A stretch of 64,000 nucleotides of DNA, from the NCBI GenBank assembly GCA_964187785.1, contig OZ076409.1, positions 45,386,001 through 45,450,000 on the forward strand, given 5' to 3'. The translations under genes and the position numbers were made by a program. Each line of letters opens with the position of its first letter. Position 1 is the first letter of the stretch. This DNA is from Amphiscolops sp. MND2022 (taxonomy: Eukaryota). This document shows, in pieces, positions 10,976 to 41,577 of this stretch. The notes beneath the pieces were generated by a model that saw only the letters and a program-made list of their open reading frames with translations, did not search any database and was not told the origin of the DNA.

Positions 10976-13159
10976 TGTCATGCCAGCATGATGGAAATGT
11001 AATCTACTTAATATCTGTAATGTAAATATTATGTCTTATGTACTTAGATATGGGCAATATGATGTCGTATAATAAGGGCCATGGTTGTGAGCAACCCTAC
11101 GTTACTTGTACTTTAATCCCTTCCCCTTTTGAGTGTGAGTTATATATATTTACTTAATACTGAGCGCTCTAGTTCCGGTGTCCGCATAAATGATCTTGCC
11201 AGAATCTAGCCTTGAAAGTGCTATATTTCATAAATATTGGTTTGTCACGACAAGGGAGAGAAGTTTTCCGGTCAGACTGGACCGAGGAATATTGGAAGTA
11301 ATGGAAAATATAACTTCTACTAACTCCCCGCCTCAGAGTATGTAGTTGTGACAAATTCCATTAAATTCATCACAAATTCATCGTCGAATTTGATGACAAT
11401 TTTGATCTGATCAGAAATTTCACTTGGATCCATCAGCGGGTTCAACGGTGTTTTTAACCAAAGTTCATCGCAATCCCATCCTTAAAGTTTGCGAGTGAAC
11501 AAAACATGGGACTTTAAACTGACTTTCATCAGAAATCCATCAACGGATTTTATGGGACTTATTCTAGTAAAACTCATCTTTAATTCATCGTGATTATTTC
11601 ATTTAGTAATTCCTGAATGTGCTTCTCATTTCTAAAGAACAGTAGTCCATCCTTTATTCATCGCGTTCACTAGTACGGAAGAGAAATGAGAAAGTACATC
11701 CTTAATTCATCCTAAAAAAGAGTGAAAGTGCTGGTTATCTGATTTGTTTAGTAAACCCATCCTCAATTCATCTTGATTTCGTTTGTGCTGAAAATTAACC
11801 ATTTAAGCGGGTGAGTTCATCCTAAACTCATCGCCAATTTGTACTGCTTTGGTATTTGCTGTTTTAACTGACAAGTTCATCCTAAACTCATCGCCAAAAT
11901 TCTCCTGTACTAGAATTAGCGTTTATCGACTGAATTCATCCCTAATTCATCGTCATTTGAATCTGTGCTGGAAATTGGCAAATTATGCATGGAGTTCATC
12001 CTTTTGTCATCGTCAGTTTGAATTGTGTTGATTTCCGAGCGAGAAAGACTATCATTCATCGCATTTTCATCCAGAGCAAAACTAGACTTGGAAATCAGCA
12101 AATATTCTTACAAGTTCATCGCATTTCCATCTTCAAGTTTTAAATCATTGATTTTGGCGCTAAAATCAGCGGAAAACATCGTTTTCCCAGTCCAAAGTGT
12201 GCTTCACCTTAAATTTGATTGAAATTAGTGCGTTATTGAATGATTTGAGTCCATTTTAGTTGCTATAGAAACCATGATGTTATGTGCAGGCAATTGCGAC
12301 ATTGTAAATTGATGACTAAACACCATTAACACATGTAAATGTACCATGGTGCGTGGCCACTTTGCGGCAGTTCACAACACTGGTCACGTGACTTACCATT
12401 TTAACACCAGCTGGTAACAGCCAATGAGAGAAGGTTGGTAAGAGATTTAGCGTCTTATCAACCGAAAAGACACGTGAACTGCTGTAATTTGGACCGCCAT
12501 TAAATATTACTCAGCCCGAATTGCGACAAGCTACCGACCAGTTGGATATTTTAACACGCAAAAGTCAGAAAACACATCTCTATTTCATCTTCAGAAATTG
12601 AGAAATTTAAACTGAGTAATTTCTTGGTACATCTACGACTGCGATGAACATTGGATGAACTTCTTCTGAATAACTTGCTAGTTTTCTTTTCCTTATATAA
12701 CTGCTTACTTATTTGTACGACTACTTTCTAAAACATCTCAGTTCAAATTAGTGAATTTTGGGATCGAACTTTCAGTTAAATCAGCAAGATACATCGAAAA
12801 CACATCTCAGATAATTCAGTCTTCACTCATAATTCTTTTCTCTCGAATACATGAATCCGGACCAAGGCACTGAACTTAGAAGCGGTAGAGTTATACATTC
12901 CTCGTCAGGAACATCTTCTCCAATAGATCCAGACATGGCTCAATCGTCCGCCAATGACTCTGACAATAACGAACCTTCAGATATCTCGTCCCAATTGTCT
13001 GAAATAAAAGAGAACTATGAGAAGAAGATAAATGAGTTACAAAGCGAATTTAGTCAACTGAAGAACTTATTGATGGCAGTTATTAGTAAAAATGATGAAA
13101 ATAACTACCTTCAACATCGCAAAGTTCTTCAAAGCCGACCCACAGAGTTGGGTTCGACA
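10976..13159 (+). repeat. E2 5' LTR (2184 bp)
   Basis: TGTCATGCC...TCGACA; about 99% identical by eye to 27476-29660. Confidence 0.95.
11366..12130 (+). promoter_or_regulatory. E2 LTR dyad array CATC-N7-CATC (duplicated at 27866-28630)
   Basis: About 12 dyads, e.g. catcctaaactcatc, catccctaattcatc, catccttttgtcatc, catcgcattttcatc. Confidence 0.75.
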
Positions 13160-14355
13160 TGGTGACAGGAGTTACAGAAACCCGCTCCACCCGCCCGACA
13201 TCCAGCTTCACAAACTTCAGGCGATACCAGGAAGACGACTCGGACGAAGAAGGTGAATCAACTCCTAGAAGCAATGAGGAACGACTACTCAATGCAATCG
13301 AGACGATCCCCCAACGAATCAAAAGCACCACCACCAACACAAAATTACTACAGACACACGTCCCAAATTTCAGAGGCCAAAAAGACAAATTCGTGGAATT
13401 CGAGCACCTTCTCCTCAACCACCTTAGCCCGCTCGCCAACAAAATCACCGAAGAGAACAAACTCCACTTCTTTCAAAGCCTTTTGAGAGATGATGCAATA
13501 GAGTACTGGCAATCCATCCAGATAACGCCACTAACAACACTGAAAGATGTGCTCGACCTCTTCAGGAAAGAATTCGCGAAAGAGGACCTTAAAGAAGTAG
13601 CTCGCTACAAATGGGATCAAGCCCGTTACGATCCCACCACAGAAACATTCAGCGACTTCCTCAAAAACTTGAAAAAGACTGCGAAACAAGCATTTGGGGA
13701 AGAAGCGGATAAAATCATCAAAATGTTCTTGTTCGGTAAACTCCCAGTCGAAATACAACAAGAACTTACGATGGCCAATAAGGAGGAGAGCTCACCAGAA
13801 GAAATCAAGACATACTTGATGAGAAAGTACCAGTACCAACAGTACGTTGCGCCACCTACGACAATTCAACCATTTAACGCGGTCACCTCCTCGGTCCCAA
13901 CGACCAACACAACGATTAAACCAGCAACAACGACGACAACACAACCGACAGAACGAAAACGATTTGAGGGACAATGCTTGTACTGCGGAAAGACAGGTCA
14001 CCGCAAAACAGAATGCCGCGCCCGACAACGTGACGAAGCAAACGGCATTAAGAAAGAAGATGCAATTCCGATGAAGAAAACAACCGACACAGACAAACCG
14101 AAGTACAATCCCAAGCTGGTTTGCCAGATTTGTGGATACACCGGCCACTCTGCAAGAGACTGCAGGCGACGCATTCCCAAGGAAAGCAGCTCTGCATATG
14201 GAAAGATTCCATACACAACAAATTCACAGGACGACAACAAGGCTAGACGACAAGATTTAAAACGACAGCAAAAGCCGATGAATCCAATGCAAGCAAATAC
14301 TGAGGACGACGAACAACTAAGCTACTCTGATGAAGACATTAACCAGGGTTTTTGA
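12851..14355 (+). CDS. gag: E2 gag; starts inside the LTR; 1-bp deletion near 13105 in this LTR copy
   Basis: The 3' LTR version (29351-29660) reads in frame ...HRVGLD into MVTG. Capsid-like region; two CCHC knuckles (CLYCGKTGHRKTEC, CQICGYTGHSARDC). Confidence 0.9.
13160..13171 (+). other. E2 primer-binding site TGGTGACAGGAG (tRNA-Leu-like)
   Basis: Abuts the LTR end, starts with TGG, identical to the E3 PBS; one mismatch from a typical tRNA-Leu(CAG) PBS (TGGTGTCAGGAG). Confidence 0.8.
14346..14352 (+). other. -1 ribosomal frameshift slippery site G GGT TTT
   Basis: XXXYYYZ heptamer directly before the gag stop; pol is in the -1 frame. Confidence 0.8.
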
Positions 14356-17300
14356 TTCAGCCACGATTTCCGCCCGCTAGAAATACAACGCGCGACAAAC
14401 GACTTTCGACTCAACCGACTACACACAACCGTCCAATGAAGAAATGGCAGCCTTCACTGGACAAACGACCAAAAGCTGACGACGTCTATCAGCGAAGACT
14501 TTCCAACGATGAAAAAGCGATGGGAATTGCACGTCAACGCAACGGCAGCCGCTTTTCTCCACTCGCTGAAATCAACGATGAACAAACGATGAACTGGCAA
14601 CAAAACACCATGAGGCAGGTGGAAGATGCCAAAGAGATGGAAACCAACCATCTTGACGACGACTCGACTTTACACTCAACAATCGACAAACGGCTTAGTA
14701 TTAAAAAACATGCAAAACAGAGTAGTATTAACGTTTCAAAAGCTAAAAAACATGCAACTAAAACAGAAATTCACGTTCTCAGTCCCACTTTACACTTAAA
14801 CAAGAAAGATAAAATGCTTTACGTCCCTCTTCAGTTTGACAAATATGAAAACAGCGCACTTTTAGATACAGGCGCAATTCAAAGTGCAATGTCTGAAGCA
14901 GAATTGCGAAAAATAACAACGGCTCATCCAGAAGCCATCCTTCAAGAACTCCCCCCTCCGAATTTCAAAATTCAAATAGCAAACGGGAACTTAGTCCCAG
15001 TACGTAAGCAAGTCTTACTTAGATTTTACGTTGCTGGAAAAGTCTTTGAAGAAACGTTCCTAATCCTTCCAACAATGGGCACAATTTTAATTGGAATGTC
15101 ATTCTTTGAAAAGTACTCAGTCAATTTAGACATAAAAAACCACCTTGTCCACTTCCCTAATCACATGATGTCCATGCAAGTTAGACAGCAAAAGAACAAC
15201 AGATTCAAAACTGGTTTAATTGATTTGTGTTCCAGTACCAGAACAGTGATCCCTCCTCTCCATCAAGTGATGATACAGGTCCACAGTGACGCGGACATCT
15301 CACTTACAACTGGTACAGTTGAGGGCTCACCTGGATTCATGCGAAAGACGTGTTTGCTTGTTTCTCCAGCTTTGGTTGACCTAGACGAGGGCAAGACGAC
15401 AATCCAGGTCACCAACCCGAACAACCACACGTTCACACTTGATGCCAACACCACTCTGGCACACTTTCGCATACCGACACCACATCAGGCGGCAAACATC
15501 ACACCCATGCCAGTCGAACACTTGAACCTGATCACCAAGTACCCAGATGAGGCGGAAGCAGTGATCAACCAACTGTTCGTGAACCCTGAAATGAAGTCAA
15601 CTAAGTGGTACCCAACTCCCGAGACGTGCAGTGAGCCAGACAAACTCAACGCAATTGAGCGACGAATCTATGATGAGATTCTGGCACTACGAGAGCTCGA
15701 GAAGCTTGACCCGTCCCAATCCGATGAACAACGGATGAACTTCCTGAAGAACTTCAACTGGGACGACTCGCTTCTTACTCCGTCTCAACGGTTACAGGTA
15801 GAGGAGTTGCTGGTAAAGTACAACTCCATTTTTGCTAGACATCGTTTTGATATTGGCATGAACACTGATTTTAAAGTTAAGCTAACACCCCAACATGAAG
15901 AACCTGTTTATTCACAAAGTCTCCCTACTCCGACAAATTTGAAGGACGATTTGCTCGTGGAGTTAGCTTTAATGCAAGAGTACGGGATCATAACTACTTT
16001 GCCTCATAGCAAATACTCATCTCCGATATTTGCTCAACGTAAACCAAATGGTAAATTGAGGATTTTAGTTGACTTGAGAAGAATAAACCACTTGATCAAA
16101 AACGATTACGGTGAACACAACCATCCCGTAACAACAATTGCTGACGCTGCCCAACACATGGCCGGGAAAAAGTATTTCTGTAAACTTGATTGTTCCCAGG
16201 CCTACCATTGCATTCCAATGGCCGATGAGCAGTCTGTCCAACTGTTATCGTTTAATTTTGGTTCTAGAACTTTTGCCTTTTTACGTCTAGCCCAAGGTCT
16301 TAACCGTTCTTTGTCAGCATTCACAAGTGTAGTCCGTGAGTATTTGGACCCCTTGGTCAAAGCGGACCGATGTGCTCAATATGTTGATGACATTGGAATT
16401 GCAGCACACACCCCTGACGAACTGATTAATAACCTTGAACTTGTTTTTCAGCAGCTGAACAAAGCCGGTCTTAAACTTAGCATGAGTAAATGTGAATTTG
16501 GGCAAAAACAAATTGAGTACTTGGGAAAAACCATTTCTAGCACCGGTATTGCTCCCATTGAGAAACGAGTAACTGACTATCTGACCAAATTGAAACCCCC
16601 CAACTCAGTGAAAGCATTGCAACGTTATCTTGGTTTTGTAAACTTTTACAGGTCTTATATTCCCCGACTAGCTGATAAAACTTGTTGTTTACAGGAATTG
16701 ATCAAGAAGGACGTCCCTTTCAAACTGAATCAACAACATAAAGATGCTATTTTTGAAATCAATGAAAGTTTGTTAAAAGCAACAAAAGTGTCTCTGAAAT
16801 TGCCATTACCTGATAAACAATTGGTAATCATGTGTGACGCCAGCGAACACGCTGCCGGCTATGTTTTGTTAATTGAGGATTATGCTGACCCGTCAGTCAA
16901 ACAAACATACGCCCCTGTTGCATTTGGCTCTAAGAAATTTCAGGGCGGCCAGATGTCTCTAACAATGTATGCCAAAGAGTTTTTAGCTATGCACTTTGCC
17001 TTCGATGAATTTGGCCACATTCTGTGAGGTGCGAAAAAACCCATCATTGTTATGACTGACAATAAGGCCTTGACTAGATTTTTTCAGGCGAAGCATATCC
17101 CGCCTTCACTTCGGAATTTTTGCGATCAAACCCTTCAGTTCAATTTTTTATTAGCACATGTTCCAGGAGTTGAAAATCCCGCAGCGGACTACTTATCTCG
17201 GCTTGAGATTAGACCTGAAGACCGTGTACATTTAAAATTGACTGATACTTTTCCAATTCACAGGATCGAGATCGACATCGCCTCCCGTACACCAAAACAG

Positions 17301-19445
17301 GAGGAAGACGAGCCTGATTACTTTCCCACGAGCGAACCACTCAGATGCAAACGCCAGAAGGATGTCAAAGAGATGAAATTGGCAACTGGCACTGACGTGG
17401 CTCATGACGATGGGAAAGGGATGAAGTTCACCAACTGTGAGAGAACAGCGGCCTCAGATGACTTCGCGACTGACAACCATCTGACGTACCGCCTCACAGA
17501 CGTGGACGAGCCAATTCAACTCTCGCAATTCATCCGTAAAGTATCATTATCACACCCGGTAATGAGTCAGGTTAGCCCCGTTGAGGGGATCGATCTAATT
17601 CAGGTCCAGAAAAATAACTGGGTTATTCAAAAAATGATTAGATTTTTAGAAGGTACTGAAATTTTGCAACACCCAGTTAATATGCAAGATCAGTTTTTTC
17701 AAAAGTTGCACAAAAATCGAAAACGCCTACAAGTTGTAAACGGTGTCATGTACAGACAGTTTTTTGATCACACGGGACTGGAGTCTCACAAGCAGTTAGT
17801 TGTTCCTGAAGACTGTATTTTGAAAATAATTAGGACTCTACATAACAGCCCGGTACAAGGACACCCTGGTTTAAAGAAAATGTTGTACGAACTTCGTAAA
17901 AGATATTACTCTCCTAACTTAGCCTGTAAAGTTCAAAAAGTCCTTGACGGATGTGAAAACTGCATGAAATCTAAAAGTGTAAAAGAAACGCAACTACGTC
18001 CACCGTTACAAAAAACCTACGACCCGTGCGACGGACCAGAAGACCTGTTAGAAATAGACATCGTTGGTCCACTCCCGGCGTCGAACGGTTTTACACACAT
18101 TCTGACGGCTGTTGACGTTTTTTCACGCTACCTGTTCGCCGTTCCGCTGAAAAGACCTGATACACATTCCGTAGTCAGAGGATTACTGTCGATCTTCACG
18201 AAACACGCGTATGTGCCCAAGCACATTCTGACGGACAAGGGCACGGCGTTCACGGCTGAACTTCTGTCTGAAATCGCGAAAGCGGCTGATATTCACATCT
18301 CCCATGCCACGATAAAGCACGCACAGACAATAGGCAGGGTGGAGAGAACGCACGCGAAACTGAAAAAGATCCTTAAAATTAGTGTAAACGCAGACCGACC
18401 ACAATGGGACCGCTATGTCGACATAGCAATCATGGCCCATAACACAACGTATCATGATTCACTGAAATGTTCACCAACTGAAATTTTCCACGGAAGAACA
18501 CCATACAACCCACTAGATCTGCAATTCCGAAACGCAAACAAACCGGCTGAAACAAAGTGCAAGGACGTGAACGAAGTTCTAGACAAAATGAACTTCATCT
18601 TCAGAGACAATCTAGATAACATCATTTCCGCCTATCATAAGTACAAAACGTACTATGATAGAAAAGCACGAGCACAGCCACTGAAGGTGAATGAATTTGT
18701 GTTCCTACTAGATCCTAAGTACGATTCTCAGAGAAGCAAAGAAGAGTTTAAAACGTTCCATTGGAAAGGACCGTACAAGGTGATCAAAGTGCTATCCGAT
18801 AGCAACTACATCATCCGCAAAGTAGGCACACACCAAACTCAGTGCGTACACAGAATGCGACTGAGGTTGTTCAAACCGGAATTTCCGATTGATGACATCA
18901 ACGTGTCCAAACATCTCTACCCAGACACTGAAAGGGTTGAAGACACGGACATTTTCGACTCGAATATTCCGACGACCGACGAAGTAGATCAGAATGAGAA
19001 TGACAATCTAGATCAAAACTTAGTCGAAGAAGAGCCTTCAGAAGAAATAATTCCACAGGTACAAGAACGACACAGTCCACAAGTAATTCCTCCAGAAATA
19101 ACCACGAGAATAGATTATCAGCAAGTAGAAACTGACCACAACAACTTTAGACCACCTACAGTTAGATTTGGAACGCAAGAGGAAATTATTCTACCGCCCC
19201 CCCGCGATGAAAGTAGGATAAGAGTACCTCTGAGAGACGAACAACACGAAAATCAGTCACAACAGACAAACACGCAAAGTGAAGATGAGGAAAGGATGAG
19301 TTCTAGACCTTCTAGAAACAATCAAAGTAGGTACAGGTTACGCGAAAACCCTACACCGAAAAAATATCCTGACTTCCTTATTCATGAGATTACATCAGCC
19401 AGAAACTCTCTGAGAAAGACCAACAAAGTAAACGTAACGAGTTAG
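14352..19445 (+). CDS. pol: E2 pol: protease, dUTPase-like insert, RT, RNase H, integrase; one in-frame TGA at 17025-17027
   Basis: LLDTGA; YVDD; CDASEHAAG/KEFLA; HPG..CENC; EIDIV/LTDKG/VERTH; WKGPY. Confidence 0.95.
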
Positions 19446-19473
19446 CCAAGAAAAACAACATTTCAAAACACAC

Positions 19474-21325
19474 GATGTGTTAAAGATGAACAATTCACAA
19501 AAACGAGTCAATTACATGCAATTTCAATTTAAAATGAACATGAAGATGTAAAATGGATGAAAAGTTACTAAAAATCACATGAAAAACGCATAAAAACAAA
19601 ACACGATGTAAAACGGATGAAAAACGACCAAAAAACCAGAAAAAACAACACACAAAAATTTGAGATGAAAAAAGGATGAAATCACATGAAAATTTAGCTC
19701 AGACACACGAGAGATGAAAAAGTGATGAACTCAGTCAAAAATTCGACCAATCAACATGCAATATTTACTAGCGATGCATTTGAGATGGAAAATACCATCA
19801 GAATGCGAACGCACTCACGTTCATGCTGTCATAATACTCTAGCTCGGCTAGAGGATGAAATAGCGATGAATTCGATCCAATTATTCAGAAATTACATGAA
19901 ATCAATTAACGAGATGAATTTGTGATGGACACTACCATCAAATCGTGACCGAATTTATCGTTAACCTGACACAATACTCTAGCTTCGCTGGAGGATGTCA
20001 AAACGATGAATTTAGTCTAAATGGAAGTTCGAAAATATTAAATGACTTACCAAAACCTCCTTGCGATGGGAAACACCATCAACATAACATCACAATAAAT
20101 CAGCTAACTCTCAAACAACATGTAACTCCACGAAACGATAAAAAACAACCGACTTTATTTCGAATCATGCAAACAGAATTATGCGACACAAAAATGAAAT
20201 GATCAATACATGTAAAGTTCAAAGACCTGCCAAATCAATGACGTCACGAAAGAAATTGAAAAATCCAAACTACATGCAATACAAATGAGTAACACACGGA
20301 AATATACATGTACCGTTTAAAAACGAACGAGATAATATATGCAATTCACACCAAAGGCATCCAAACCTAGACGAATAAAAATGAAACAAACAATCGAAAA
20401 TACATGAAGCCTAATAACTTACATGCAAAATATAAGAACTGACGAAACACCTACAAAACGAATAAAGGAGTGAGCACCCCCCAGCAAACATCAGTTCATA
20501 ACAAGCAAAACACCCCTATCGAGAAGCCAAAAACATTCCTTCGTGCTGGCTGGCATTTCTCTGAAAAGAGTGCTGGTTAGTTGAGGCGGGGAGCTCACAA
20601 CCATATTCGGATGAAGCTTGCTGCGTTGGTTATCCAGCGGCTAGTAGATTCTCAGTTAGTTTTGTAGGGGCTTTGAGACGACAAAGCCCTGTCCAAATTG
20701 ACGAACAAAATCAAGAAATAACCAACATGCAAATAATGGGGTAACCCATTAAAAGATTACATTATGAAAATACCACGAACACCAAAACGACATGTAAAAT
20801 TAAAAAGAGAATGAAAATCATACTGAGACAGTATAAAATGAGTAAAACATGCACATACCATATGAAAAGTACATTCCCGAAAACGTCAGAGTCACATAGC
20901 CACGAAAACGCACAAAATTACAAAATTTCAAAATTACGATGAAAAGAAGATGAACTATACCGCAAAACGAGCAAAAAACTTGCCAAGTCAAACTTGCGAA
21001 GCAAAAACGATGAATTACACCAAAAAACTAGCAAAAATGCAAAAATTAAAAGGCAAGATGAAAAAACGATGAACTATGTAGAAAAATCACATGTAACAAA
21101 CATGCAATGAATCGCATATAACAAACGATGTAAAAAAGATGAGAAATCAGTTTTCGCAACGTCGCTCGGTCGACCGAGGAAAACGTGATGAAAATGAGAT
21201 GAGAAATCAAAAATGAAACGCTACCGAATCACCTACACTCCCACGAGATGTAATAACGATGATTACCGCAAAAAGACTAGCTGAGAATTGTGACAACGCA
21301 AAAACGATGTGAAAACGATGCTAAT
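19474..21325 (-). promoter_or_regulatory. E2 internal dyad arrays (GATG-N7-GATG on +)
   Basis: Clusters at about 19474-20010 and 20938-21320 (e.g. 21057, 21127, 21187, 21247, 21306). Confidence 0.7.
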
Positions 21326-21628
21326 TGAAATTTGGAACTCTGAATGACGTGACCTAACAGCAGAAACTAATGATCCGCAAACCTAACCTGCCTACGACCT
21401 CAATCACTAACTAGTATCTCAAGAGAAAAACAATTCGGGTGCCACATCATTTAACTTGTAAATACAAGCTACCGAACTTTCCGACGTAGCCTTTTAATTT
21501 TCCCCCCTCCCAGTATTCTCATTTCTCTTGGCAACCCATTATGATAACAAAATACTAACTATAATATAAAATCAAGCAAAGCAATACAAAAGTTTCAAAC
21601 AACGGAGTTTACAGTTGGATCTCAAACA

Positions 21629-24600
21629 TTAATTGCCGATCTCCGGACTGGCAGCTCGTTCCCCACTAAGCGTGTATCCTAGCTTCGCATACAATTGGAG
21701 ACGATAATCTTCTCCGGCCACAATTCCGATGTCGTCCCACAACATACCCTCGTCCAGCTTCGCCAAATTGACCAATCGTCGATGTGACTCAGTCACTTCC
21801 TCTAACAAAGGGCCGCTCACACTGTCATAACTTTGGATATGATTAGCAGACAAATAGGCCAAAATCACAGCACAAACACAACTCGTGACATCGCTTCTTA
21901 ACTGCCCAAATCCATCGCAGCAAAGACTGCTTCTGCTCTGAACTCCTCCATCTAGGCATAAAACACTGCGAACCAGATTCTGAGCGCCACCACTAGAACA
22001 ATGGCGAAGAAGATCGATGACAGAACAACCCTCTGTACGTCCTGCTAGTCCCGGGTCACGTCAGATATTGACAAGGAAATCCAGAAAGCCACGTTCCATC
22101 CGACCCTGCTCCGCACGGGTGATCCGACCCAGATCCACAAGCACATCAGTGAAAATCCTGATCTCGTCTAATAGGACGTCCTCTGCAACAAAACTCAGAC
22201 AGGGCATACTGAAAACACTGCGCACAAACGACAGATCGTCTCGCACACCTGGGAGATTAATAACAGTCTTCACAACGGTTAGAATGAAAACCGGAACAAG
22301 TGACAAATCCTCTTCATATAGAGCGGCATTCGAGCCTTGATCGTCCACACAACGAAATCCGTCCAGCAACACCTGATGTTTCACTTCTGAGATTTCATAG
22401 CTTTCCACATTCAGAAAGAGCCATCCACGAATGTCCAATTCCGATGGTAGCTTTTCTTCCTCTACTAGCATCATCATCAGTGACTTCACAAAGGCAGCAC
22501 TCTCAATTGCCCAGTAGCACGCGCGCAACGTCGAAGACCCAAAACTCTTCTCGTAGGAGCTGATCACTGAAAAACACGAATCACAATTATCACAAGAAAC
22601 AACCAGGTTTAACATTACACCCACAACCGTAAAACTTCCAACTCGATCTCAACAAAAAAACCAAAACCCCCCCGTAACTTACAGAACTAAAGTATTACTA
22701 ACAAGCACGGTACACAAGACCAAGAACACGGAGTCTAATCGGAATGCCGATCTCAGCACGTAGTGTCAAGTCTAAGGCATCCAAAGGCCCTTCACCACTA
22801 GCGAAGCGTAGCAAGCATAAGATGTCAGACCAGTTCGTCCGTAACTCCTCGCACACATCGGCCAGGGTCCAAATGTACACCTCGCCGGTAAGAATCGCCT
22901 AAAATGTAAATAATACCATCCCAATCAATTCGATAAAATCAAACAATTACATCACGCCTACACACTTGCACAACACTAAAATTATTACATCATCCAATTC
23001 TCTAATATACTACGTACTTGCAGAAGTTGAGGGCATCCTAGCAACAGAGGATCTTTCACGTATCCTTTGAGACGTTTCTGTAAATGGTTCAGTACCACGT
23101 GAATGTCTGTACCCCCCAGCACTGATCCGGCCACATCCACAATTGCCCGACTGACATCTGACAGTCCCAGAGACTTCACGTCCAATGATCCGACTCCTGT
23201 GCTGCTTCGAAAGAGCCCACCCAGCTGCGGCAACTCATCGCAACACAGTCCAAGTGGGACTGGCTCACCGAGCATACAGCACCACATGTTCACTAGCCAT
23301 GTGATTACCCTGCTTTCCCAGTCTCGAACCACACTGAAGCTAAACACACAGTAGTGCTTGACCCCGTCTAACACACACACTGTAACAGTCCCTGTCACGC
23401 GCCCTCCCACAACTGACAAATGGAAGCTACTGTAAGTGCTATCGGTCCAGACAGCGATCAGTCGCCGCATCACGTACGGCCACAGCCCTAATACGATCAC
23501 GCTCTAAAACAAAAACGCTGTGAATAAAACATAAAAAAAGCATCCACCCTACCCCCCACCCACTACTAAAACTAGAAGAACACATAATGGCCAAAAGTAT
23601 GACTAAAAAACATACGAGTAGACGCTTACCATGACATCGTTCAATCCGCATTGCGCCCCAAACAAGACCGCATGTTGGGGATCGGAAGCCACCAACACTT
23701 CCCACAGGTTCGTGACACTGGCAAACTGACAATCACGATATAGGGCGTCCACAACAAAGCAAATAAACAGACGAACAGTTCGCTCTGGCCAGTCTTCCCC
23801 TTCCTCTTCGTCGCCCCACACAGGTCGTCCAGCACCCTCCAACTCGAAAACTTCCACCACATTAAGTGATGGACAGGTCTCTATGAAAGGCACGGACACC
23901 CCCTCCAGGTTCACACGGCATTCTGCACTTTCGTCACTTGTCATGAGAGTTCCATCACGTCGCCGCAACGGTAGCCCTCGGTGCAGCCGTACCACACAAT
24001 CCAGCCGATGATGGCCTAGGCCTCGGCAGTGCTCCATAAAGGTGGTAATGCCTCGGCTGCCCACCTTAACATCTCTCTTGCACATTAGACATCGCACATA
24101 CGACATGCGCGACTCGTGATTGCGTGCATATCCTAGCGCCAGCCCGCAGTATGGATGATCAAACCATCCAGACTTGATCACTTTCTTTCCTGATAATCAC
24201 AACCACACAATATAGCAAAAGTAATACCATTACAAACCATCATAGACAACGACTAAAATCATCTGTTACACATCAGAAAAATTCGAAAAATGCAAAAGTC
24301 ACAAGTAAAAACCAAAAAAGTTCACCCGGAGTGATGAAAACATGATGTAAAATAATATTTTCATTGGAAATATAAGCGAAAAACGAAGAAAAAACAAAAA
24401 GATGAAAAAGAGATGTGTTTGCACACCACCAGAATGAAAAATGGAAACTTTAAAGAATGAAAAACTCGAACGATGGAAAACAGATGAATAGAACGACTTT
24501 GAACCAAAATTGAGATATTTTAGAGCGAAAACAACTTAACGATGAAAAAGAGATGTAAACTGAAAAGAAAACACTGAAAAATAGCGAAAACCGAAACGAG

Positions 24601-26301
24601 GAATTTTAAAGATGTAAAAGAGATGGAAAGTTCTAAAAAAGGACCAGAGAGCGAAAAGACTATTGTTCAAAACTTTTGACGATGAGAAAGTGATGGAAAA
24701 TGGAAAACTGCAGAAAACCATATAGTGAAAACAGAGAAACGATGGAAAAAGGATAGAAAAGAAGAAAAACGTGAAAAATGCTAGTGAAAGTAAAAACGAA
24801 GAAGGAAATGAATGAAAATCTACTGATCAGATACTTCACCGGTTTAAAGCTGTTTAGTTAACCTGGCAGACGAGATGCAATGGGCTCGTCATCGGAGTCC
24901 AACAGGCTGGGTCCCATTGGAGACGTCTCGATGTCAGCAGTAGCCACATTGGACGCAACACTCCCTGGAGCAGACACGCCAGACGGAGGACTACGAAATG
25001 AGAAATCGTCAGGGATTTCCAGTAGGGTCTCGGTGGTGCCAGCTGAGGGAACTTCGGACGGGGCAACGTCAACGTCAACTGCCCCAGGAACATCAGCAAT
25101 CGGTGGAGGAGGAGAAGACGGTGGAGTAATCGCTGGAGGATCATAGCAGGTAGCAGCATCTCCAGTTTCAGTGACAGCTTGGACAGTTTGATCTGCAACG
25201 CCCACACAGGCATTGATGGCCATGTCTCTACAATCGACAACAGCATTTACAGCAGCGTCGAGAGTAATACGAGCAGGAGGAGGACTAGCAACGGTGAAAG
25301 ATCGCCTTAACACTGGCGACAGTACAGACACTGGCGCCTGCCTGACAGGAGAACTCACTCCAGTTAGCGACAGTTCATTGAGGAACGAGGAGAGGTTGAG
25401 TTGAGGAGGCCCTCCTTGTGTGCTGACGTCAACGCTGCCATCACCGAAGTCACTGGTCCCGATCCCGATAGAATAGGTGATGGGACGCGGTCTCGGGGCA
25501 TGGATAGACGTTGGACCTGAAAGAAGGAAACAGAAATCAGACGACGACGAATGAAGAAGAAAGTGCGCGTACGCCGCGCGAAGAAAGAAGACAGGAGAAG
25601 AATTCATCTCAAATCCATCCTCAAAATGGAATTCGCAACGAATCAGCCATGAAAACTGTGGATATTCATGATACATCCTAAATTCATCCAAAAAAAAAAG
25701 AATTTTATGAGGTAACCGACCGCGAAGGGCACTACATGCAGATGAGATGTTTACATCGGAATTACATCGGAGTGTCCGGACGATGCTTTAGTACAGGAGG
25801 AAAGTAAAATGGAGTCAACTCACTAAATTGATGGATGCTATCTCGTAGCATGTCCCGCATGTGGCGATCATACCACCCGAAGGTGATGCTAACGAGGGAG
25901 GCATACCAGGGATAGTGATCTAAACAGTAACGGAAAGAGTCAGCGTCTGAATGGATCGGGGATGAGAAAAGAAGAGATTGTAGACTGAGATGATGATCTG
26001 AAAGGAAAGAACTTACACTGCGGAAGATACGGGACGTTAGGGGCCTGTTCAATTTGCTGCTCAGGTTGATACTGAGGTGCGTGAGATGCTGCATGGATTG
26101 GAGCCTCTTGAGGCGGAACTGTCTGCAACGTAGTCAGCTCGGAAATGATGCCGACAGAGTGAACGGAGTCCGCTAAAACCAAGACACGCCTTCAGTTCCT
26201 AAATATTCCCTAACCCGTTTGTGAAGAAGAGAAAAAATAGTGCACTTACTTTCTGTGGCCTCGGTCTCCGGTAACGAATAGACGGAGTGGATATCCGACA
26301 T
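21629..26301 (-). CDS. E2 antisense spliced gene: Ser/Pro-rich N-terminus, ZnF, degenerate hAT-transposase-like body; premature TGA at 22061-22063
   Basis: Introns 23504-23629, 22899-23017 and 22567-22702 join ORFs in frame; probable introns 24190-24862 and 26173-26249. ZnF is CLMC..FMEHCRGLGH. Confidence 0.75.
24333..24760 (-). repeat. About 70-bp-period GATG-N7-GATG array inside a predicted intron
   Basis: Dyads at 24333, 24401, 24472, 24541, 24611, 24681 and (24741). Confidence 0.75.
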
Positions 26302-27469: not shown

Positions 27470-27475
27470 GGGGAG
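27470..27475 (+). other. E2 short polypurine tract (GGGGAG)
   Basis: Purines abutting the 3' LTR start; unusually short. Confidence 0.5.
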
Positions 27476-33400: not shown

Positions 33401-33412
33401 TAAATTAGCGCA

Positions 33413-34900
33413 TGTGATAATCCTCTATTAAGTCTGCGTCAGATTCTTCGTCTGAGCGTATTGTTACATCTATATCCGATTCAGCTCGAAACATAGGCTT
33501 AGCAGGATGTCTCAAGTCTTTCATTTTAGAAGCTCTTAGAGGATGATCTTCATTTTCTGAGTCTGAATTTTCGTTTAAAGATGCGTGAACTCCTATAGAC
33601 TTATCTCTGGATCCCGACGGCTGAGTATTTTGTGTTTCATTTGTTTCCGATCTTGGATTTGTGATTGTAGATTCATTTTTGTTAGTTTTGATTTCTTTTA
33701 AGATCGCTTCAAACTTGCTATCGATTTCTTCTCTCATTTTCCCTATTCTGTCGTTGTTTCTTTTCTCCATTTCTTGTGTCCAAACTTGAATCTCATTACT
33801 GATTAGACTGGGTTCAGTTAATTGATTTTCCAAGATGTTAGGACCTAAATTTTCTTGATCAACTAAGTTAGAATTAGTTAAAGTCGTATTACCTGGGTTT
33901 GGAGTCTCTACATTCTCCTCTCTGCTTGGAGAAGGAGTTTCCAACCTTCTAGACCTTCTACTTCTCTTGTTTCCCATTCTGCTCAAGTGAAAATGTATTT
34001 CGGTTGCTGGGGAAGAATTTCAATTATCTTTCGGTATCTCAAATCCAAAGAAGGATCAATATAGTCAAGAGAAAAGTTTCGCAAAAGACAGAAAGGTTTA
34101 CAGCAACTGTTTTGCACAAGGTAGAAATGATGAATGACTGATTCCCAACACTAGAAACTCCAGAAAATTAAAAGCATGACACCCCTTTTTATCGCAATCA
34201 TCATCAGAAAAATATAAAAATAGAATTTCATCATCATGACATCAGGTTATATATATCTCAGTTACATGACTTTCAGAAGAATAAACAGGACCCTAGAAGG
34301 CCTGGAAACAGCACAAAATGACGTATGAAGTTGTGTTAGTGGTTGGAATTCTCAATACATTGAAATGATATAATGAATGAACAATTAAAGCGAAAAACGT
34401 ACAGTAACGAGTATACGCTACTTCTCGAACCGCGTAATGCCGCATAGTAAAAAGTGCATAGTGACGAGTATACATTATGCTTTAATCCGTAGGATGCCGC
34501 ATAATCCAATTACGAAAGACGCATACTTGCGAGTAGTCAACATATCTCAAAACGCATAATGACGTATAGTCATTAGCACATATGATCATCTGATGACGTC
34601 ATATCTTAAAAGCAATATCAAATGGAAGCCAATTAGTCATTCAATGTGATTTTTGGGTATAAATCTCTAAGTTTTGGCTACGTATGACTCTCCTATCGCT
34701 CGCAAACAACTTCATTTATGAAAAGCATCATTAAAAATATTTGCATGACTATGGCAAATTAACAAATAAAGTTTTGCAAGGTGTTTGTTCAAGTTCTTCA
34801 AAGTCTATTTACGATGATTTCTGGGTGTTGATATTGTCGCTGCTCGCATTCATCTCTCATTGCTGCACCACGGGTCCAGTACAGCTGTATGGCTGGAACA
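33413..34900 (-). repeat. E3 3' LTR (1488 bp), carrying a duplicate gag N-terminus
   Basis: About 99% identical by eye to 47821-49308. Confidence 0.95.
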
Positions 34901-35915
34901 GTCCCGCTCTTTTGAAGATGAATAGGGCAGCTTCAAAACCATCTATGAACGCTCTAGAGCGGACTCCACGGTCTCTAACGGTTTCACCGTCATAAGCTGT
35001 AGCTGCGAGATATTCTCCAAGGGTCTCCAACGCTATCTGGTCGTAAGTTTTGTTGCAATACTCGCATATTCCGGCCACATTAGGCATGACTGTTGGGAAC
35101 AGCCTAGAGTTGTCTCTTTCATTGATTGGCATGTATAGCACGTTAGTACTGTGTGCTACAGCAAAGGGAAATCCGACTTGTACCATTGGATGTATTGGGA
35201 CTGGTACCGTAGGTAGTATGTCCGGAACTCCACGTGGAGGAAGTTGAACCACTAAGGGGGTTGTGTTTGACACATGTGCCCTCTGGATCTCATTGTAATT
35301 GGGTAGGATTAGCACACTCGCTTGACCCTCATCTTGGCCTGCATTCTGTGTGATGTTTTGCCCATTGTTTACACTCCTGTCCCAATGGTGAAAATCTGAG
35401 GAATCGGGATGATGGTTTGGTGGGTAGGTTGGGATTATTTGACTCGCGGCGTCAGACTGGTGTTCAGCATTTCTTGGGGTAGGTAAGATTGCTGCAGCCG
35501 GACGACCATAGCTATTCAACCTGATATTAATATCAGGGTTTGGATTGCTTGAGGGTTCATTTTCCAGTTCCAGATCGCTATCAATAAATGAAGGGAGCGA
35601 TAACGGAGTTGACGGCAGATCTTCTTCAACTAAGTCCATTAGTTCCCTTTCAATTCTCGTTCCTCGGACGTCTATTGTATCCTGAGTAGACATTTCGTTT
35701 TCTCCCGTGGGGAACAATAATGCTGTGGTAGCCCCCATAAATGCAGTCATGGAGTCTTCTTCTGTCGTATTCACCCTGAACCTGTCCAGCAATTGAGGAA
35801 CATTTCCAGGTTCGACGATGAATTCGCTATCTGAATTGCTTGAAATATCGATAACGTCGGGTGACAGAGGCGAGTACAGGGTATCTTCTTCTATGGCAAA
35901 TTGCAAGTGATTCAT
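34857..35915 (-). CDS. E3 sense 3' accessory ORF, 352 aa; crosses the PPT and ends 44 nt inside the LTR
   Basis: Intact ATG-to-stop frame; acidic/Pro-rich N-terminus; C-terminal CEYC plus helical domain. Confidence 0.75.
   Translation of the reverse strand: MNHLQFAIEEDTLYSPLSPDVIDISSNSDSEFIVEPGNVPQLLDRFRVNTTEEDSMTAFMGATTALLFPTGENEMSTQDTIDVRGTRIERELMDLVEEDLPSTPLSLPSFIDSDLELENEPSSNPNPDINIRLNSYGRPAAAILPTPRNAEHQSDAASQIIPTYPPNHHPDSSDFHHWDRSVNNGQNITQNAGQDEGQASVLILPNYNEIQRAHVSNTTPLVVQLPPRGVPDILPTVPVPIHPMVQVGFPFAVAHSTNVLYMPINERDNSRLFPTVMPNVAGICEYCNKTYDQIALETLGEYLAATAYDGETVRDRGVRSRAFIDGFEAALFIFKRAGLFQPYSCTGPVVQQ
34901..34913 (-). other. E3 polypurine tract (AAAAGAGCGGGAC)
   Basis: Purine-rich run directly upstream of the 3' LTR on the element strand. 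Confidence 0.6.
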
Positions 35916-36749
35916 CTTGTGGATTCTCGAGAAGTTTCAATTTGGAATATTATTTGCAAGTTTGAAAATCTGTGTTTTCAGACGACTGATTTGTGAGTTT
36001 GTGGAGACCAAATGGTGTCGGTTATTTCGCTTTCTTCTTTCCAAGGCAAGGAAAACCCGCGAAAAAATTGCTTGTCATGGTCTGATCTCCCAAATCCCCT
36101 TATAAGGGTTTCTTTCAGGCTTCTGATCATGAGACACGTGGATGATATTTCGTAAACAAATTCCTTTTTAGGTGTTCCAGTTTTCTACATCACCTTATTT
36201 CCTCTCATCAGCGTCTTCCACACCGTTTCATCGGAGTTTTAAATGATACGTAAACAAATTTAACCTAACATCAAAGTAGAAAGAACGAAAATGTGATTTA
36301 CAAGATGTGCCTAGTTTCTGAATCTAAAATATATTTATCTGGAATTGCATGACTGGAAGCAAAGAAGATACAAATCATTAAAAAAGGGGTTCATATTAGT
36401 CAAATCATGTTCTAAAAAAAGCTTTAGCTGTAAGAAGCGTTTTGTTTTGTTTTAGTCCCGCACTTGAAAAGTGCGTATGGTTCTGTTTTTCCATATGATT
36501 TCAATGGAACAAGTGAAATTTAGGATAAAATTACATAAAAGAGTTTCTGACTGAGATATCACATTGATGTCCCAATGGCACCTTAAATCTCGTTCGAAAA
36601 AAGCAATGAATGCATACATTCTATGCATATTAATAACATCAGAAGTTCATTTGTGATAATTAACACGTAGTTTCTTTAGTTTGTTACGTAATAATGATTC
36701 ATTCACACAATATTAACATTGGTTCATCTCTGTGGACACATACAGCGAG

Positions 36750-37308: not shown

Positions 37309-40300
37309 ATGGACCCAACTCAGAAGACAGAATTATCTGGGAAACGGAGGACGCGAAAAGACCAAGTTCCCGATTTTCGAGGCGGAGCTAGAGATTACAA
37401 TCCTTCCTTCCGATACAACACAGGTTGGTTCGATTTGTTTCTCAGAATTTAACTCGATAAGTTTCATTCAGAGTGAATTTTTGATCCCTGTCAAGCTGGC
37501 CAGGCTTGCAGCTGAAAGTGATCTAGATATTCAGACCAGATTCAGAATTTTTTCGAAACGTTTCCGTTTCTAATTTCTAAGTGACTTCCGCTTTCTCTAT
37601 TCATTTCCTGTCCCCGCGTCCGGATTCAGTCAATTTTTAACTTCCGTCACTTGACATAGTTTTTATTTTTTCTTGTTTATCAACAAGGTAGCGTGTTTTA
37701 GATGAACCAGAAGCTCCAGAAACTTCTCCAGCTAAATCGCCTGCCAAATTTTATACTTCGTTGGTGTCCACTTCTCCAGCCACACCACGAGTCCGTCCCG
37801 GGACAAAAACACCCAGTACCCCAGGTCTTCAAATCGACGAGGGGATAAGAGTAGAGGTTGATCGCAGCTCAAATTATTCCTGAGGCCTCTCCACCAAAAT
37901 CAACAAGTTCCCGATCTCGTTCAGGAAAGGATTCCTCAAATTCAAGGCCCACAAGTCCACAACCACCCACGACTCCTACCCGCAACATGGATAGTTCAGT
38001 CCATATGTTAGACCACGAGGTATACAGGGGGTTTGAGATGCCAGGTACCTCACGAGTTGAGCCGACCCACTTTGATCAGTTTCTTGGGCAAGCTGTAGAC
38101 GAGATTCCCAATCAAATCATTTCCTCGACTGTTGAACACTGTAATTCGCAAGACATCGACCTAGTAGAGGTCACCCATGAAGCTGTTGCAGCAGGTAGTT
38201 ACCCCGACACGTCTCAACCCAGCCTTAGCATTACGAGGCAAGAGATTCTCACTTTGACGAGTGTCTTGGAGCGTATCCCCCAAACTTACCTGGTAGGGGA
38301 AGAGGTTGATCCCAACCGGTCTTTGTCTCTCATGATTGTAGACGAAAACGCCTTACCCCCATTGATAGCTTCTTCAAGCCAAGATGACACTCCTGCGCAG
38401 GCTACCTCCGAAGTAGCACAAGTTGTTGTCAATACCGGGAATCCCATAGCAAGTGGGAAAAGACGTAGGCCCAATTATTCCCTTACAGGGTCAATGTTCA
38501 GGAAACACCCTGTATTGAAATTTTCAGCCACTGGCCCCTTGGACCGGGACAAGACACCTTACAAGTGGTGGTGTAGGGTGTGTAAGAGTGAACTCTCTTT
38601 GATGAGTCGGGGAAGCCTCGAATTAATGTCCCATTATCGTTCAGAGTCGCACCTAGTCAAAGAACATCGCATCCGTATGGAGGTGCCTGGAATGTCTTTA
38701 TTTGACAAGGACGAAAAAGAACTGCTTGGACTTTCTTTGCAAGAGGCCAAAAAGAAAGCTAAGGATACGTATCCCATTGCACCACAATTGGATCCTTGCC
38801 GCCCATTAGTCGGACAAGACTCAGTGCCTGACTTCAGCGCAGCCAGTAGTCCCACTGCCAAAATTCTTTCTCAAATTACCGTTCTTGAATTTGGACTTCG
38901 CCATGGAGGGCACATAAACAGTCTCACTGGCATTTACGATGAACTTGTGAGGTTCAATTCTATGAGTCACTTGAGTACCCAGAATTGGAGCCAGGAGCGT
39001 CTTTTCGTTAGTATTTGTCATTGTTGCGTATTTCTTTTTCTTTCGACTTTGGGACATACTTAATTGATGTTCTTGTTCTAGGGGATAGTGGTACACCTGT
39101 TCCGTGAACTGATGGCCTACTGTGTGACAATGGTTAATTCTTCGGGATTTTACTCATTAGCATTACAACACACTCCTACAGCCTCTTTCATAATCTTGAA
39201 TTTCTGGTCGGGCAATGTGTTCCACAGAGTCTGCCTTGGTAGCACTCCACGAGGGATGTTACTCCCCCATAGGATCCTAAATTTCATTTCATCCTTCTTG
39301 TGTCTTTTTGAAACCTTCCCGACATGTGTCGCTGTTATCAATGTTGGAGACAAATTGGGCGACTGCTTATCTACCTGTCTCCCTGGAAAACAACAGCCTG
39401 CTAACATTCGAACCTTCAACCCAGAGGAGTTTGAGCGAAGCCTTTCAGTCCCCACCGCCCAAATCATAGAGCGACATGATTTCCGGACTATCCTAGATTT
39501 CTTGTTAATGAAATTGCGCACTGCTCTTGACAAGGATTGGCTGAAAAAACTACCCCTTCTTCACCAGGTAGACCTCATATTGTTTCTTTCAAGTAATCGT
39601 ATAGAGTAGTTATCCCATTCTATTTCCTTTAGAGTGTAATTCGCTTGGAGTATTCTCTCGAGGAAGCATCTTCCATCATCGAAATCTTGTCAAACAGTTG
39701 GGACCATGTCAAGGACCATTTGAACAGAGTCGCCCGGCTTCCGGTCTACCGATTCCATATGCGAGAGGTTATACCACATCCCAAAATTCTTTCTATTGAA
39801 TCAGGCTCCGGGTATTCCGGTTCTCCCTTTTCATCATGATCTTTTCGTTTCAGCCAAACACTTTGGATGAGTGTTTTCGACTCGACACTGCCTACTTGGC
39901 ACGACTCTTCGTTATAAGATGTGTCATCGATCACTGTTAGTTGTTTTCTTTGTTGCTATCAACATAACATTTCGACAGGTTTCGGTATTCTACCTCCTTT
40001 TCCATACAGTACCTCTTGTACTTATCCCCCTGATCTGTATAGTACTTCTCACACACATGTGTTGCTTGAACACTCATGTAAATGTCCGATTATGCTAATT
40101 CCGCACAATGACGTATGATCAGTACGTCTTGTTTCGTATAGTGACGCATAGTTATCCCCACTACTAGTGGTGGTAAAATATATACTTAATCATGCTAATT
40201 CCGCATAGTGACGTATAGTCACCACAGCTTGTTCCGCATAGTGACGCATAGTCGCCACAGCTTGTTCCGCATAGTGACGCATAGTCGCCACAGATTGTTC

Positions 40301-41577
40301 CGCTCGATCACGTATAAGTTCAAATCTTTCGAGGTGAGAACTTATATCACTAATGCATTTCTGCACGTGACGCGTATTGTAACTTTTACCAAAAGTTAAC
40401 ATTCACTTGTTCTGATTTATTCATTTATACTAATGGTAACAAACATCATTTTGTTTGGTGTGTTTTAGACAATTCTGCATTCTCTGAAGTCCAGTCAAAT
40501 GTCGAGGGCGGCTTCCGATTATTCAATCAATTTTCGGTATTCATTTATAGCCAGCTCCAGAGTATCTTGCCTGATGCTACACTAGGCAGCGTTTCTGATT
40601 GGGATGGGTTCCTACAGTTGGATTTGAACCAGCCAGAACTCCCTTTCAAATCAGCAGATGAGTATGTCCTAAATGAGGATTTTCACCGACTTGTTGTCGC
40701 AAGCAAACTGCCGCGCCCAAGCAAATTTGTAGACCAGTCCATCGCGTTCGGGAAGGCCTTGTGTAAACAATTGATGGAACATGAGATCGTCAATTCTGGT
40801 CTCGTTAAGGGTTTGTCTGCCTTCGATCCTGCGGTAATTCTTGATGGACCCGAAAGCCACTACATCACTGCCATAGAGAAATTGTCTAGTCATTTCGTTT
40901 CTATGAAGCTGATTACTTCGAGTGACAAAGCGAAGGTGACAAGTCAATACCGTTCCTTTGCCATTAAACTGCGGTCCGAAGCAATCCCGGCTTATAGTGA
41001 TTGGATTCACTTCCTTTCAGCTCATCACGAGATCCAATGTCGACCTGAGTTGTTTCGTCTATATAAGCTCTCCTGTCTATGTTTGCCCCCTCTTGTAGAC
41101 ATACCTCCGGAATTCACTGTCCCAATGCCCAAGTTAGCTGTTGATGCGGAGATGTTTGATTCATGCCTTAGAAGTCTCCAAATGTCATATTCAACAGTTC
41201 CTCACGTGTCCAGTTTATACAAGGATCCGAAGTCCGTGTGCAGAGTCTTCCGCCTGTTGGGTCGTGGATCCGATCTACTAGTGGACAAAAAGTTTTCCGT
41301 CTGGAACTTCTTAAAAGGAAGTGGTCCTCGTCGGACTGCAATGTTGGGAAAAATGGAGGCTGAATACCGAAAGGCAGTTCTACATTACGACAGGCCAGTG
41401 GTCACTTCAAACACTACTACTCCCAGTGTTAGCCGGGCAAGTAGCACACACAGCACTCCATCTCCTGATTTGTCTTTGGGCAGAGTTAATGTGTCGCTTA
41501 GTCGCTGTGCTAATGTATCCCCAGAGGGTACTGTGAAGAAAAACAATACCAAAATTGTGAAGGGCAAGAAAAACTAG
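37309..41577 (+). CDS. E3 antisense spliced gene: Ser/Pro-rich N-terminus, ZnF, degenerate hAT-transposase-like body
   Basis: Introns 39007-39081, 39568-39632, 39768-39853 and 39936-40468 join ORFs in frame. ZnF is WWCRVC..LMSHYRSESH; C-terminus has W..F....RPELFRLYKLSCLCLP. The 5' exons (37309-37423, 37702 onward) are tentative, with a frame break near 37855. Confidence 0.8.
40201..40303. repeat. 33-bp tandem repeat x3 carrying the E3 dyad, inside an intron
   Basis: ccgcatagtgacgcatagtcgccacagcttgtt repeated. Confidence 0.9.

Follow-up and report, generated by a model that had tools for sequence, protein, structure and literature searches.

How a long terminal repeat (LTR) retrotransposon comes to carry a multi-exon gene in the orientation opposite to its own gag-pol, and what it gains from it, is the question raised by a 64,000-nucleotide stretch of the genome of Amphiscolops sp. 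MND2022 (assembly GCA_964187785.1, contig OZ076409.1, positions 45,386,001 to 45,450,000), which is called the window here and whose coordinates are used throughout. The window contains three Ty3/Gypsy elements, E1, E2 and E3, which represent mutually divergent lineages, and in each of them an antisense gene of some 1,000 codons, referred to below as the cargo gene, is situated between pol and the 3' LTR. At the level of sequence, the comparisons presented here demonstrate that the zinc finger and the C-terminal half of the cargo protein descend from a family of hAT-like DDE transposases.

The order of parts is the same in all elements: a Ser/Pro-rich region, a finger exon (Z), a beta-strand exon (M), one or more small exons (X) and a helical exon (C). 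Splicing was predicted from the conservation of sites. The E2 gene, on the minus strand, would run from an ATG at 26301 to a stop codon at 21629 and comprise seven exons that encode 1013 amino acids, plus an optional 96-nt exon, with GT/AG sites and matching phases. Its predicted first exon (26250..26301) contains the ATG and specifies a peptide that is identical in a diverged copy (L196); it is followed by a second predicted exon (26017..26172), by the optional, phase-symmetric exon, the prediction of which is uncertain (25824..25919), and by the Ser/Pro-rich N-terminal exon (24863..25516). A long intron (24190..24862) leads to exon Z (23630..24189), which encodes a CCHH BED-like zinc finger, and beyond it lie exon M (23018..23503), a beta-strand block, exon X (22703..22898), which corresponds to X1 plus X2 of E3 and is conserved in seven of seven E2-family loci examined, and the helical exon C (21629..22566), which is homologous to the insertion domain and the C-terminal region of hAT-like transposases. 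Exon C of this copy has an in-frame stop codon (22063-22061), where 16 of the 25 listed siblings with at least 96% identity have a 339-aa open frame.

The E1 gene, also on the minus strand, is represented by exon C (2864..4011, the exon used for structure prediction), exon X (4179..4260, 82 nt, equal in length to X2 of E3), exon M (4351..4971, including the X1 part) and a finger frame (5092..5457) that is broken past about residue 93 in this copy. On the plus strand, E3 has the Ser/Pro region and finger (37855..39006, with a provisional 5' boundary), exon M (39082..39567), X1 (39633..39767), X2 (39854..39935), an intron (39936..40468) that holds CGCATA-type repeats and a tandem array of 33-bp units, and exon C (40469..41577). 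The E1 and E3 proteins end in a basic tail. Splicing of the three genes in silico, which had been suggested by the original prediction, joined the phases without a frameshift in every model. Among loci with near-full coverage of exon M and at most one stop codon, AG precedes the exon in 53 of 54 and GT follows it in 52 of 54, compared with 0/324 and 25/324 control positions; many of these loci are close siblings, yet the subfamilies differ in intron sequence. All three lineages have the Z/M intron (phase 0) and the X/C intron (phase 1), while the M/X1 intron is found in E2 and E3 only and the X1/X2 intron in E1 and E3 only. At one further locus (G000:C6:9975662-9980165; L004/L005), E3-type cargo exons form a tandem duplication of about 3.3 kb within a single element.

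Copies of the gene are numerous in the 1.07-Gb assembly, to which all genome-wide searches refer: exon C gave at least 102 matches for E3, 107 for E1 and 150 for E2, with only the best of 6,856, 6,700 and 939 candidates, respectively, being scored. The E1 and E3 versions of exon C are recognizably related in a direct comparison (BLASTP E 3e-15). Pairwise BLAST detected no similarity of E2 exons M and C to those of E1 and E3, but profile comparison connects E2 exon C (probability 93.6, E 2e-7 over 255 columns) and exon M (E 2e-4) to the other lineages, and the E2 finger exon matches that of E1 (BLASTP E 8e-7). The proposal that three elements carry a homologous antisense multi-exon gene is thus borne out by the exon chains, the profile homology and the number of matches. 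So is the proposed finger, a CxxC-x16-H-x5-H motif, in which the metal ligands are better preserved than any other residues in the three lineages. The helical C-terminus holds for all three elements as well, whereas the motifs that had been ascribed to it (GL..F.P and RPELFRLYKL) are present in E1 and E3 and absent from E2. Within the E2 family, exon C diverges fastest (41-65% identity, versus 57-87% for the finger exon). An exon C profile matched 787 clusters at 50% identity, and the 10 of 150 that were checked were all unnamed ENA proteins; longer, spliced homologues of E3 exon C were not found among 2,568 candidates, which is a weak test.

An invertebrate transposase-like family whose members end in LSHGQAxVERGFS, which we took to be a lead to the donor, allowed the origin to be traced. 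It was gathered by this pattern from metagenome contigs (79 listed loci, of which 77 have the motif in frame), and the exon C profile matched 21 of these 77 sequences, many of them short fragments, at E<0.01, versus one of 77 after reversal. In an enlarged donor set of 123 sequences (120 further relatives and three frames from the genome), 115 were matched by the exon C profile at this threshold and 55 by the finger profile, versus none of 123 after reversal in either case. Alignment to 87 donors with hhalign gave a probability of 97.6 and an E value of 4.6e-12 over 279 columns for exon C, and an E value of 4e-4 for the finger. The matches are collinear on the donor map, with the finger at 24-60, exon M at about 178-385, filling the gap, and exon C at 437-735. 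In a tree built from two alignment blocks after removal of rows with more than 25% gaps (79 cargo rows and 45 of the 87 donors), all 79 cargo rows fall into one clade with E1, E2 and E3 subclades. An AlphaFold model of E1 exon C, made from 93 sequences, has a predicted local distance difference test (pLDDT) score of 90.5, and its comparison with 48,161 chains placed the Hermes transposase (8edg_A) first, as had been predicted beforehand, with Z 5.1 and a root-mean-square deviation of 5.3 over 179 residues; the alignment puts model residues 1-253 on Hermes 368-609 and is the sole top row that spans most of the domain.

The donor family itself is related to the Pfam-positive hAT transposases of the genome (probability 82.8, E 9e-6, with CxxH, RW and ERxFS aligned), while none of the 63 members scanned passes the hAT Pfam cut-off and one UniRef name cites a hAT dimerisation domain. 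Its named relatives come from animals, namely invertebrates and fish. The hAT-like origin that had been proposed is therefore upheld by the profile homology of exon C and the finger and by the weak top match to Hermes. Rather than ZNF862/ZMYM-type or Ac-like proteins, the nearest relatives of the cargo appear to be this unnamed family of invertebrates and fish; a genome search for DUF4371, the domain of ZNF862/ZMYM-type derivatives, gave no match, nor did its controls. With six Pfam-positive Ac/Tam-like transposases of the genome, only the cargo finger matched (L073, E 1.5e-4), and exons C and M gave no hidden Markov model (HMM) match. The same genome holds 58 matches to fragments of the donor family. 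Two such fragments lie at G000:C12:25138008-25139144 (L197) and G000:C11:28844433-28845434 (L198), the former of which keeps FDE, SMDGP, GSCGLH and HRW; the donor end motif, searched as a DNA pattern, has one genomic match, with a stop codon inside. Sampled donor transposases (for example L141) are single open frames, unlike the intron-bearing cargo. Alternatively, the cargo may have been taken directly from a domesticated host gene of this hAT-like family.

Donors and cargo differ at the active site. All 87 donor rows retain D, D, CxxH and RW, and 86 of them the catalytic E. In the cargo, the column of the first D (D1) is mostly K/Q/A/G, also T, with E in 3 of 44 rows, the CxxH columns hold F/L and S/A/E (posterior 0.75), and the catalytic-E column is mostly P/Y/S/L. 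The predicted loss of catalytic residues is supported at the positions that can be mapped. In the hAT protein Kat1, DDE mutants lose cleavage and joining and a CxxH mutant loses hairpin formation (PMC4763223), so that the changes at the corresponding cargo positions make an active transposase unlikely. Convincing terminal inverted repeats around the cargo were not found among the 25 longest of 90 and of 80 candidate pairs in E2 and E3, which are short, imperfect and differ between the two elements. As read from these alignments, the cargo protein is a descendant of a hAT-like transposase yet not itself a member of the hAT transposases.

Several results weigh against this account. Exon M matches the donors weakly (E 0.024 over 185 columns, or 0.002-0.005 when only E1 and E3 rows are used), a reversed control of another cargo piece reached E 0.018, and the exon M profile had no HMM match in the enlarged donor set (0/123). 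The exon M model is poor (pLDDT 57, with a predicted three-strand sheet at about 60). The Z score of Hermes is tied with those of short helical bundles, and Foldseek found no significant match of the exon C model in the PDB and viral libraries, so the structural check that had been recommended came out weakly in favour in the first comparison and not in the second. Of the catalytic positions, D2 could be mapped at a posterior of 0.19 only, and the posteriors of mapped sites range from 0.2 to 0.8; RW was unaligned in most runs and appeared as an invariant W in one permissive run at a posterior of 0.4; and exon M has one Asp that does not vary among the rows covering it. The two blocks of the tree were, moreover, pre-aligned, which favours monophyly.

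Other searches returned nothing. No fold match was found for the exon M model (Hermes 2bw3, at rank 47 with E 1.0, was not counted), and the best ESM Atlas values, 0.80 and 0.90, are at noise level. Pfam gave no match above its cut-off for the cargo frames and alignments (PF05699 in 0/93 rows, zf-BED at E 0.13 for the finger, and no DUF4371 match in the cargo frames). Neither E2 exon X nor the part of exon Z that follows the finger, where the intertwined dimerisation domain of a hAT transposase would lie, gave a profile match to the donors; for exon Z this concerns its second half. A PDB sequence search with the cargo and donor-family alignments also found nothing significant, and because the donor alignment was among the queries, even the donor family does not lead to Hermes by sequence. 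Such negative results in Pfam, the PDB sequences and Foldseek, together with the failure of the six Ac-like genome transposases to match C or M, are what would be expected if the gene were a captured host gene or an unrelated helical protein that resembles hATs by chance. This is highly improbable in view of a profile E value of about 5e-12, the clean reversed controls, the collinear finger and exon C and the first rank of Hermes; a chance likeness is refuted by the exon C profile (E 4.6e-12) and the matches to 115 of 123 donors versus none after reversal. Exon M is probably, to judge from its position and weak match, a degenerate RNase H-like core.

In every one of the 60 E1/E3-type loci retrieved, pol follows downstream of the gene in the reverse orientation. 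Comparison of stop-free copies, which biases the sample toward active lineages, showed that 74 of 98 pairs are saturated at synonymous sites, and the ratio of nonsynonymous to synonymous substitution rates (dN/dS), the selection check named in the original prediction, lies between 0.04 and 0.29 in 23 of the other 24 and at 0.75 in one. The other five frames contain stops in every copy pair. The cargo gene is conserved and under purifying selection. A nested hAT-like transposon of the usual kind, whether it retains catalysis or is carried along as a decaying passenger, could account for the donor-family sequences elsewhere in the genome and for broken copies, including those of E1 and E2; it would be at odds with the constant adjacency of pol, the many open frames with saturated synonymous sites, the changed catalytic positions and the lack of convincing terminal inverted repeats among the 25 longest pairs in each of E2 and E3, and we regard it as exceedingly improbable. 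A plain nested transposon is largely refuted by the linkage to pol, the open frames and the catalytic changes.

In the history that we favour, a common ancestor of E1, E2 and E3 would have received a single insertion of a hAT-like DNA transposon, placed head-on between its pol and its 3' LTR, and the ends and active site of the transposon would then have been lost while the gene was kept. One such capture, disarmed and retained, is very probable from the sequence record; that it was single is suggested by the intron positions and phases common to the lineages and by the one cargo clade. The persistence of introns in a retroelement finds an explanation in the orientation of the gene. The packaged RNA of the retroelement is the strand opposite to the cargo gene, in which the cargo introns are unspliced, and the introns would thus survive retrotransposition.

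A second property of the gene emerged from comparison with its carriers. The E2 pol family is very abundant and very young: of 30,075 first-look candidates, the best 108 E2 integrase matches are all 98-100% identical, many in open frames of 1703 aa. For 36 of these 108, the matches for which the cargo-integrase linkage is known, a cargo match lies 3.7-4.7 kb away on the opposite strand; seven of these cargos are at least 96% identical to that of E2, 25 are 57-62% identical and four are 36-38% identical. Thus, at G000:C4:69856473-69861613 (L199, L069) the integrase DNA differs from E2 at 35 of 1143 bases and the cargo protein is 38% identical, and at G000:C2:95388074-95393281 (L200, L064) the respective values are 40 of 1143 bases and 59%. 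The cargo exons of the L199 and L200 elements are saturated at synonymous sites (proportion of synonymous differences 0.76-0.78 against L061). Fast protein evolution cannot saturate synonymous sites next to a pol that has diverged by 3%, and old alleles therefore move between close relatives. A similar disparity is found in the E1 and E3 lineages, where pairs with an integrase divergence of 0.21-0.35 at fourfold sites have a cargo divergence of 0.68-0.82. The second accessory frame of E3 (34857..35936, minus strand, 359 aa), which has the orientation of gag-pol and faces the cargo gene head-to-head, gives a further comparison: 8 of 15 copies in which this frame is at least 91% identical carry a cargo of 64-65% identity, in a sample of 28 of 117 and 28 of 102 matches, the latter picked by eye.

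Across 13 representative loci, integrase and cargo divergence are correlated (Spearman 0.79, with non-independent pairs). Taken together, the comparisons show, as far as alleles and pol can be dated against each other, that the cargo gene behaves as an exchangeable cassette with alleles older than the adjoining pol, and that these alleles swap among close relatives but stay within the deep lineages. Exchange could proceed by template switching between co-packaged RNAs. The copies L196 and L062 are mosaic relative to E2 24216-27226 and the exons beyond, with about 90% identity in the upstream DNA and long intron, and 87%, 78% and 65% protein identity in the finger exon, M and C, respectively.

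Clues to function come from short repeats. GATG(A/T)AA-type repeats occur at 6.0 per kb in the spacer downstream of E2 pol and at 8.9 per kb in the long intron of the E2 gene, compared with a background of 0.4. CGCATA/CGTATA reaches 17 per kb in the E3 intron (39939-40468) and 4-5 per kb upstream and in the LTR, and GACGT(A/T) occurs at 3.6 per kb upstream in E1 and also at 5.7 in the E3 intron, with backgrounds of 0.4-0.6. The interval between M and C contains 7-15 copies of the E3 motif in nine of nine E3-type loci, versus 0-1 copies in 11 of 11 others, in which the interval is shorter. The retained finger suggests DNA binding. The BED domains of Hermes bind short subterminal repeats (PMC10368747), transposases can activate cognate copies, and the regulator TnpA evolved from a transposase (bioRxiv 10.64898/2026.08.24.746577); the targets of VANC are tandem repeats that differ between related elements (PMC5735166). 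By analogy, the spliced cargo protein would be nuclear, its BED-like finger would bind family-specific repeats in its own introns, the spacer and the LTR, and, much as Spm TnpA and VANDAL VANC do, it would activate its own copies or relieve their silencing in a sequence-specific manner, while contact with host chromatin or silencing factors may fall to the fast-changing helical domain. That the protein is a self-regulator or anti-silencer of its own element copies is, by this analogy, a proposition for which we see the chances as evenly balanced. It should be noted that the motifs were chosen by eye from the same sequences, so that their enrichment is suggestive only, and that the E3 motif persists across cargo alleles that are 68-72% alike, so that target diversity does not explain allele diversity.

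The same origin is compatible with other functions. The protein might serve in counter-defence or competition through protein contact, its variable helical domain binding or decoying a host restriction or silencing protein or poisoning related hATs, and cassette exchange would keep old alleles under frequency-dependent selection. The discrete old alleles on a near-identical pol and next to near-identical second open reading frames (ORFs), the fast divergence of exon C and the 58 donor-family remnants in the genome would all fit. However, the finger ligands, best kept in all lineages, point to DNA binding, and dN/dS indicates purifying rather than diversifying selection; we consider this role unlikely, although it can coexist with self-regulation. 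A still less likely function is the steering of integration or nuclear entry, by which the protein would bind complementary DNA ends or LTR repeats and tether the integration complex to chosen chromatin. It would be in line with the repeats in the LTR, with the basic tail of the E1 and E3 proteins and with the nuclear products of plant antisense ORFs, for which a like role has been proposed (PMC7264820), but one type of integrase pairs freely with the alleles despite a divergence of 38-99% among them, and the repeats are mostly internal rather than terminal. To return to the self-regulator, its most complete version, in which a DNA-transposon enzyme became a spliced anti-silencing regulator that reads the repeats of its own element and is drawn from an ancient pool of alleles that are exchanged under host pressure, much like env among retroviruses, is offered tentatively and may well be wrong in one part or another.

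The carriers are otherwise conventional, with gag, reverse transcriptase (RT), RNase H (RH) and integrase (IN) domains in Pfam; on the plus strand of E2, gag is followed by protease (PR)-RT-RH-IN. E2 is a complete element of 18.7 kb (10976-29660) with LTRs of about 2.2 kb (10976-13159 and 27476-29660) that are 99.2% identical, have TG..CA ends and are flanked by the 5-bp target duplication GCTAT (10971-10975 and 29661-29665). The 5' LTR includes the start of the gag frame (13105..14355), which encodes zinc knuckles and within which the primer-binding site TGGTGACAGGAG lies at 13160. It is followed by pol (14343..19445; PR, a weak dUTPase-like match, RT, RNase H and integrase), which has an in-frame stop codon in this copy (17025-17027), and by a spacer (19446..21628) that separates the convergent stop codons of pol and cargo and holds GATG(A/T)AA-type repeats. 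The dUTPase-like Pfam match falls in the protease/RT interval (14343-17027; E 0.04, below the cut-off), the position described for Burro. E3, of 15.9 kb (about 33413-49308) and on the minus strand, has LTRs that are 98.6% identical (3' LTR 33413..34900, with CGCATA-type repeats inside, and 5' LTR near 47821-49308), a target duplication in which only three of five bases match, and a gag-pol region identified by Pfam (41801..48427). E1 is partial, truncated by the left edge of the window, and its pol is frame-broken. The gag coding start lies inside the LTR in both E2 and E3 (12833-13171, 29333-29668, 33405-34019 and 47042-48427), and the two elements have the primer-binding site TGGTGACAGGAG in common, which a single open frame crosses in E3 and at which two overlapping frames meet in E2.

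The second ORF of E3 encodes an acidic, Pro-rich protein with a C-terminal CxxC and has at least 117 genome matches, most of them open frames; no Pfam family was found for it. E1 has a sense Ser/Pro-rich ORF of 234 aa (6895-7599, plus strand) in the equivalent place, with no detectable relationship to that of E3, and in E2 no ORF of at least 100 aa was seen there. Elsewhere in the window, inverted relatives of the E2 LTR (55303-55613 and 54636-54726, 70-88% identical, and also 56661-56748) are probably either a remnant or a solo LTR that has diverged. A gap in the assembly, filled with N, lies at 56105-56304, and non-LTR-retrotransposon-like fragments at 57894-58850 and 61311-63480, with a weak endonuclease Pfam match at 62212-63477 (E 0.049).

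Extra ORFs in antisense orientation have been described in Gypsy elements of plants and fungi, their origin being given as unknown (PMC7264820, PMC11963269). The plant examples (Grande gene23, RIRE2 and Retand TRP28) resemble the cargo in lying antisense between pol and the 3' LTR in most copies, in having repeats in the same region and in the proposed role as a nuclear DNA-binding regulator, a role that is predicted here. Their origin is untraced, whereas the cargo has a hAT-like origin, at least six predicted introns in E2 and exchanged alleles (PMC7264820, PMC11963269). According to one review of 2020, the lack of similarity of extra ORFs to other transposable elements does not support an origin from nested elements (PMC7264820). 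With hATs (Hermes, PDB 8EDG, and the LSHGQAxVERGFS family) the cargo shares a BED-like finger, a beta block, a helical insertion and a C-terminal region in the same order (PMC10368747, PMC4763223); unlike them, it has changed D1, CxxH and E positions, a long Ser/Pro-rich N-terminus and introns, and resides in an LTR element.

Spm TnpA is likewise an element-encoded regulator derived from a transposase, and catalytic loss recurs in domesticated transposases (bioRxiv 10.64898/2026.08.24.746577); TnpA serves its own DNA transposon, however, whereas the putative cargo regulator would have crossed from class II to class I. In the available text of that preprint, LTR, Gypsy, Ty3 and retrotransposon have no occurrences. 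The likeness to VANDAL VANC, a family-specific protein with repeats, belongs to the working model, the activity of VANC having been shown and that of the cargo being predicted (PMC5735166). Burro and Ogre are also large elements with accessory coding, and the 16-19 kb found here overlap the 16-25 kb of Ogre; Burro exceeds 30 kb and has its extras in the sense polyprotein or in accessory ORFs, and the available part of the text contains no transposase-derived antisense gene (PMC6431247). The literature searched, which did not extend to Repbase, most subscription journals and supplements, describes no LTR element with an antisense gene of hAT origin.

Both the origin and the function of antisense extra ORFs in LTR elements are open questions, and the cargo gene offers a traceable case of a nested transposon as the source. 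It would carry the path from transposase to regulator, through loss of catalysis, beyond host genomes and DNA transposons to a case in which a retroelement does the domesticating, and it illustrates that introns lying antisense can be retained by a retroelement. The series of alleles on a nearly constant pol, together with the family-specific repeats, makes specificity and anti-silencing directly testable. If the proposal is true, it would be an exaptation from class II to class I with a cassette system, and one that may have helped to drive a very large expansion of these elements in the genome.

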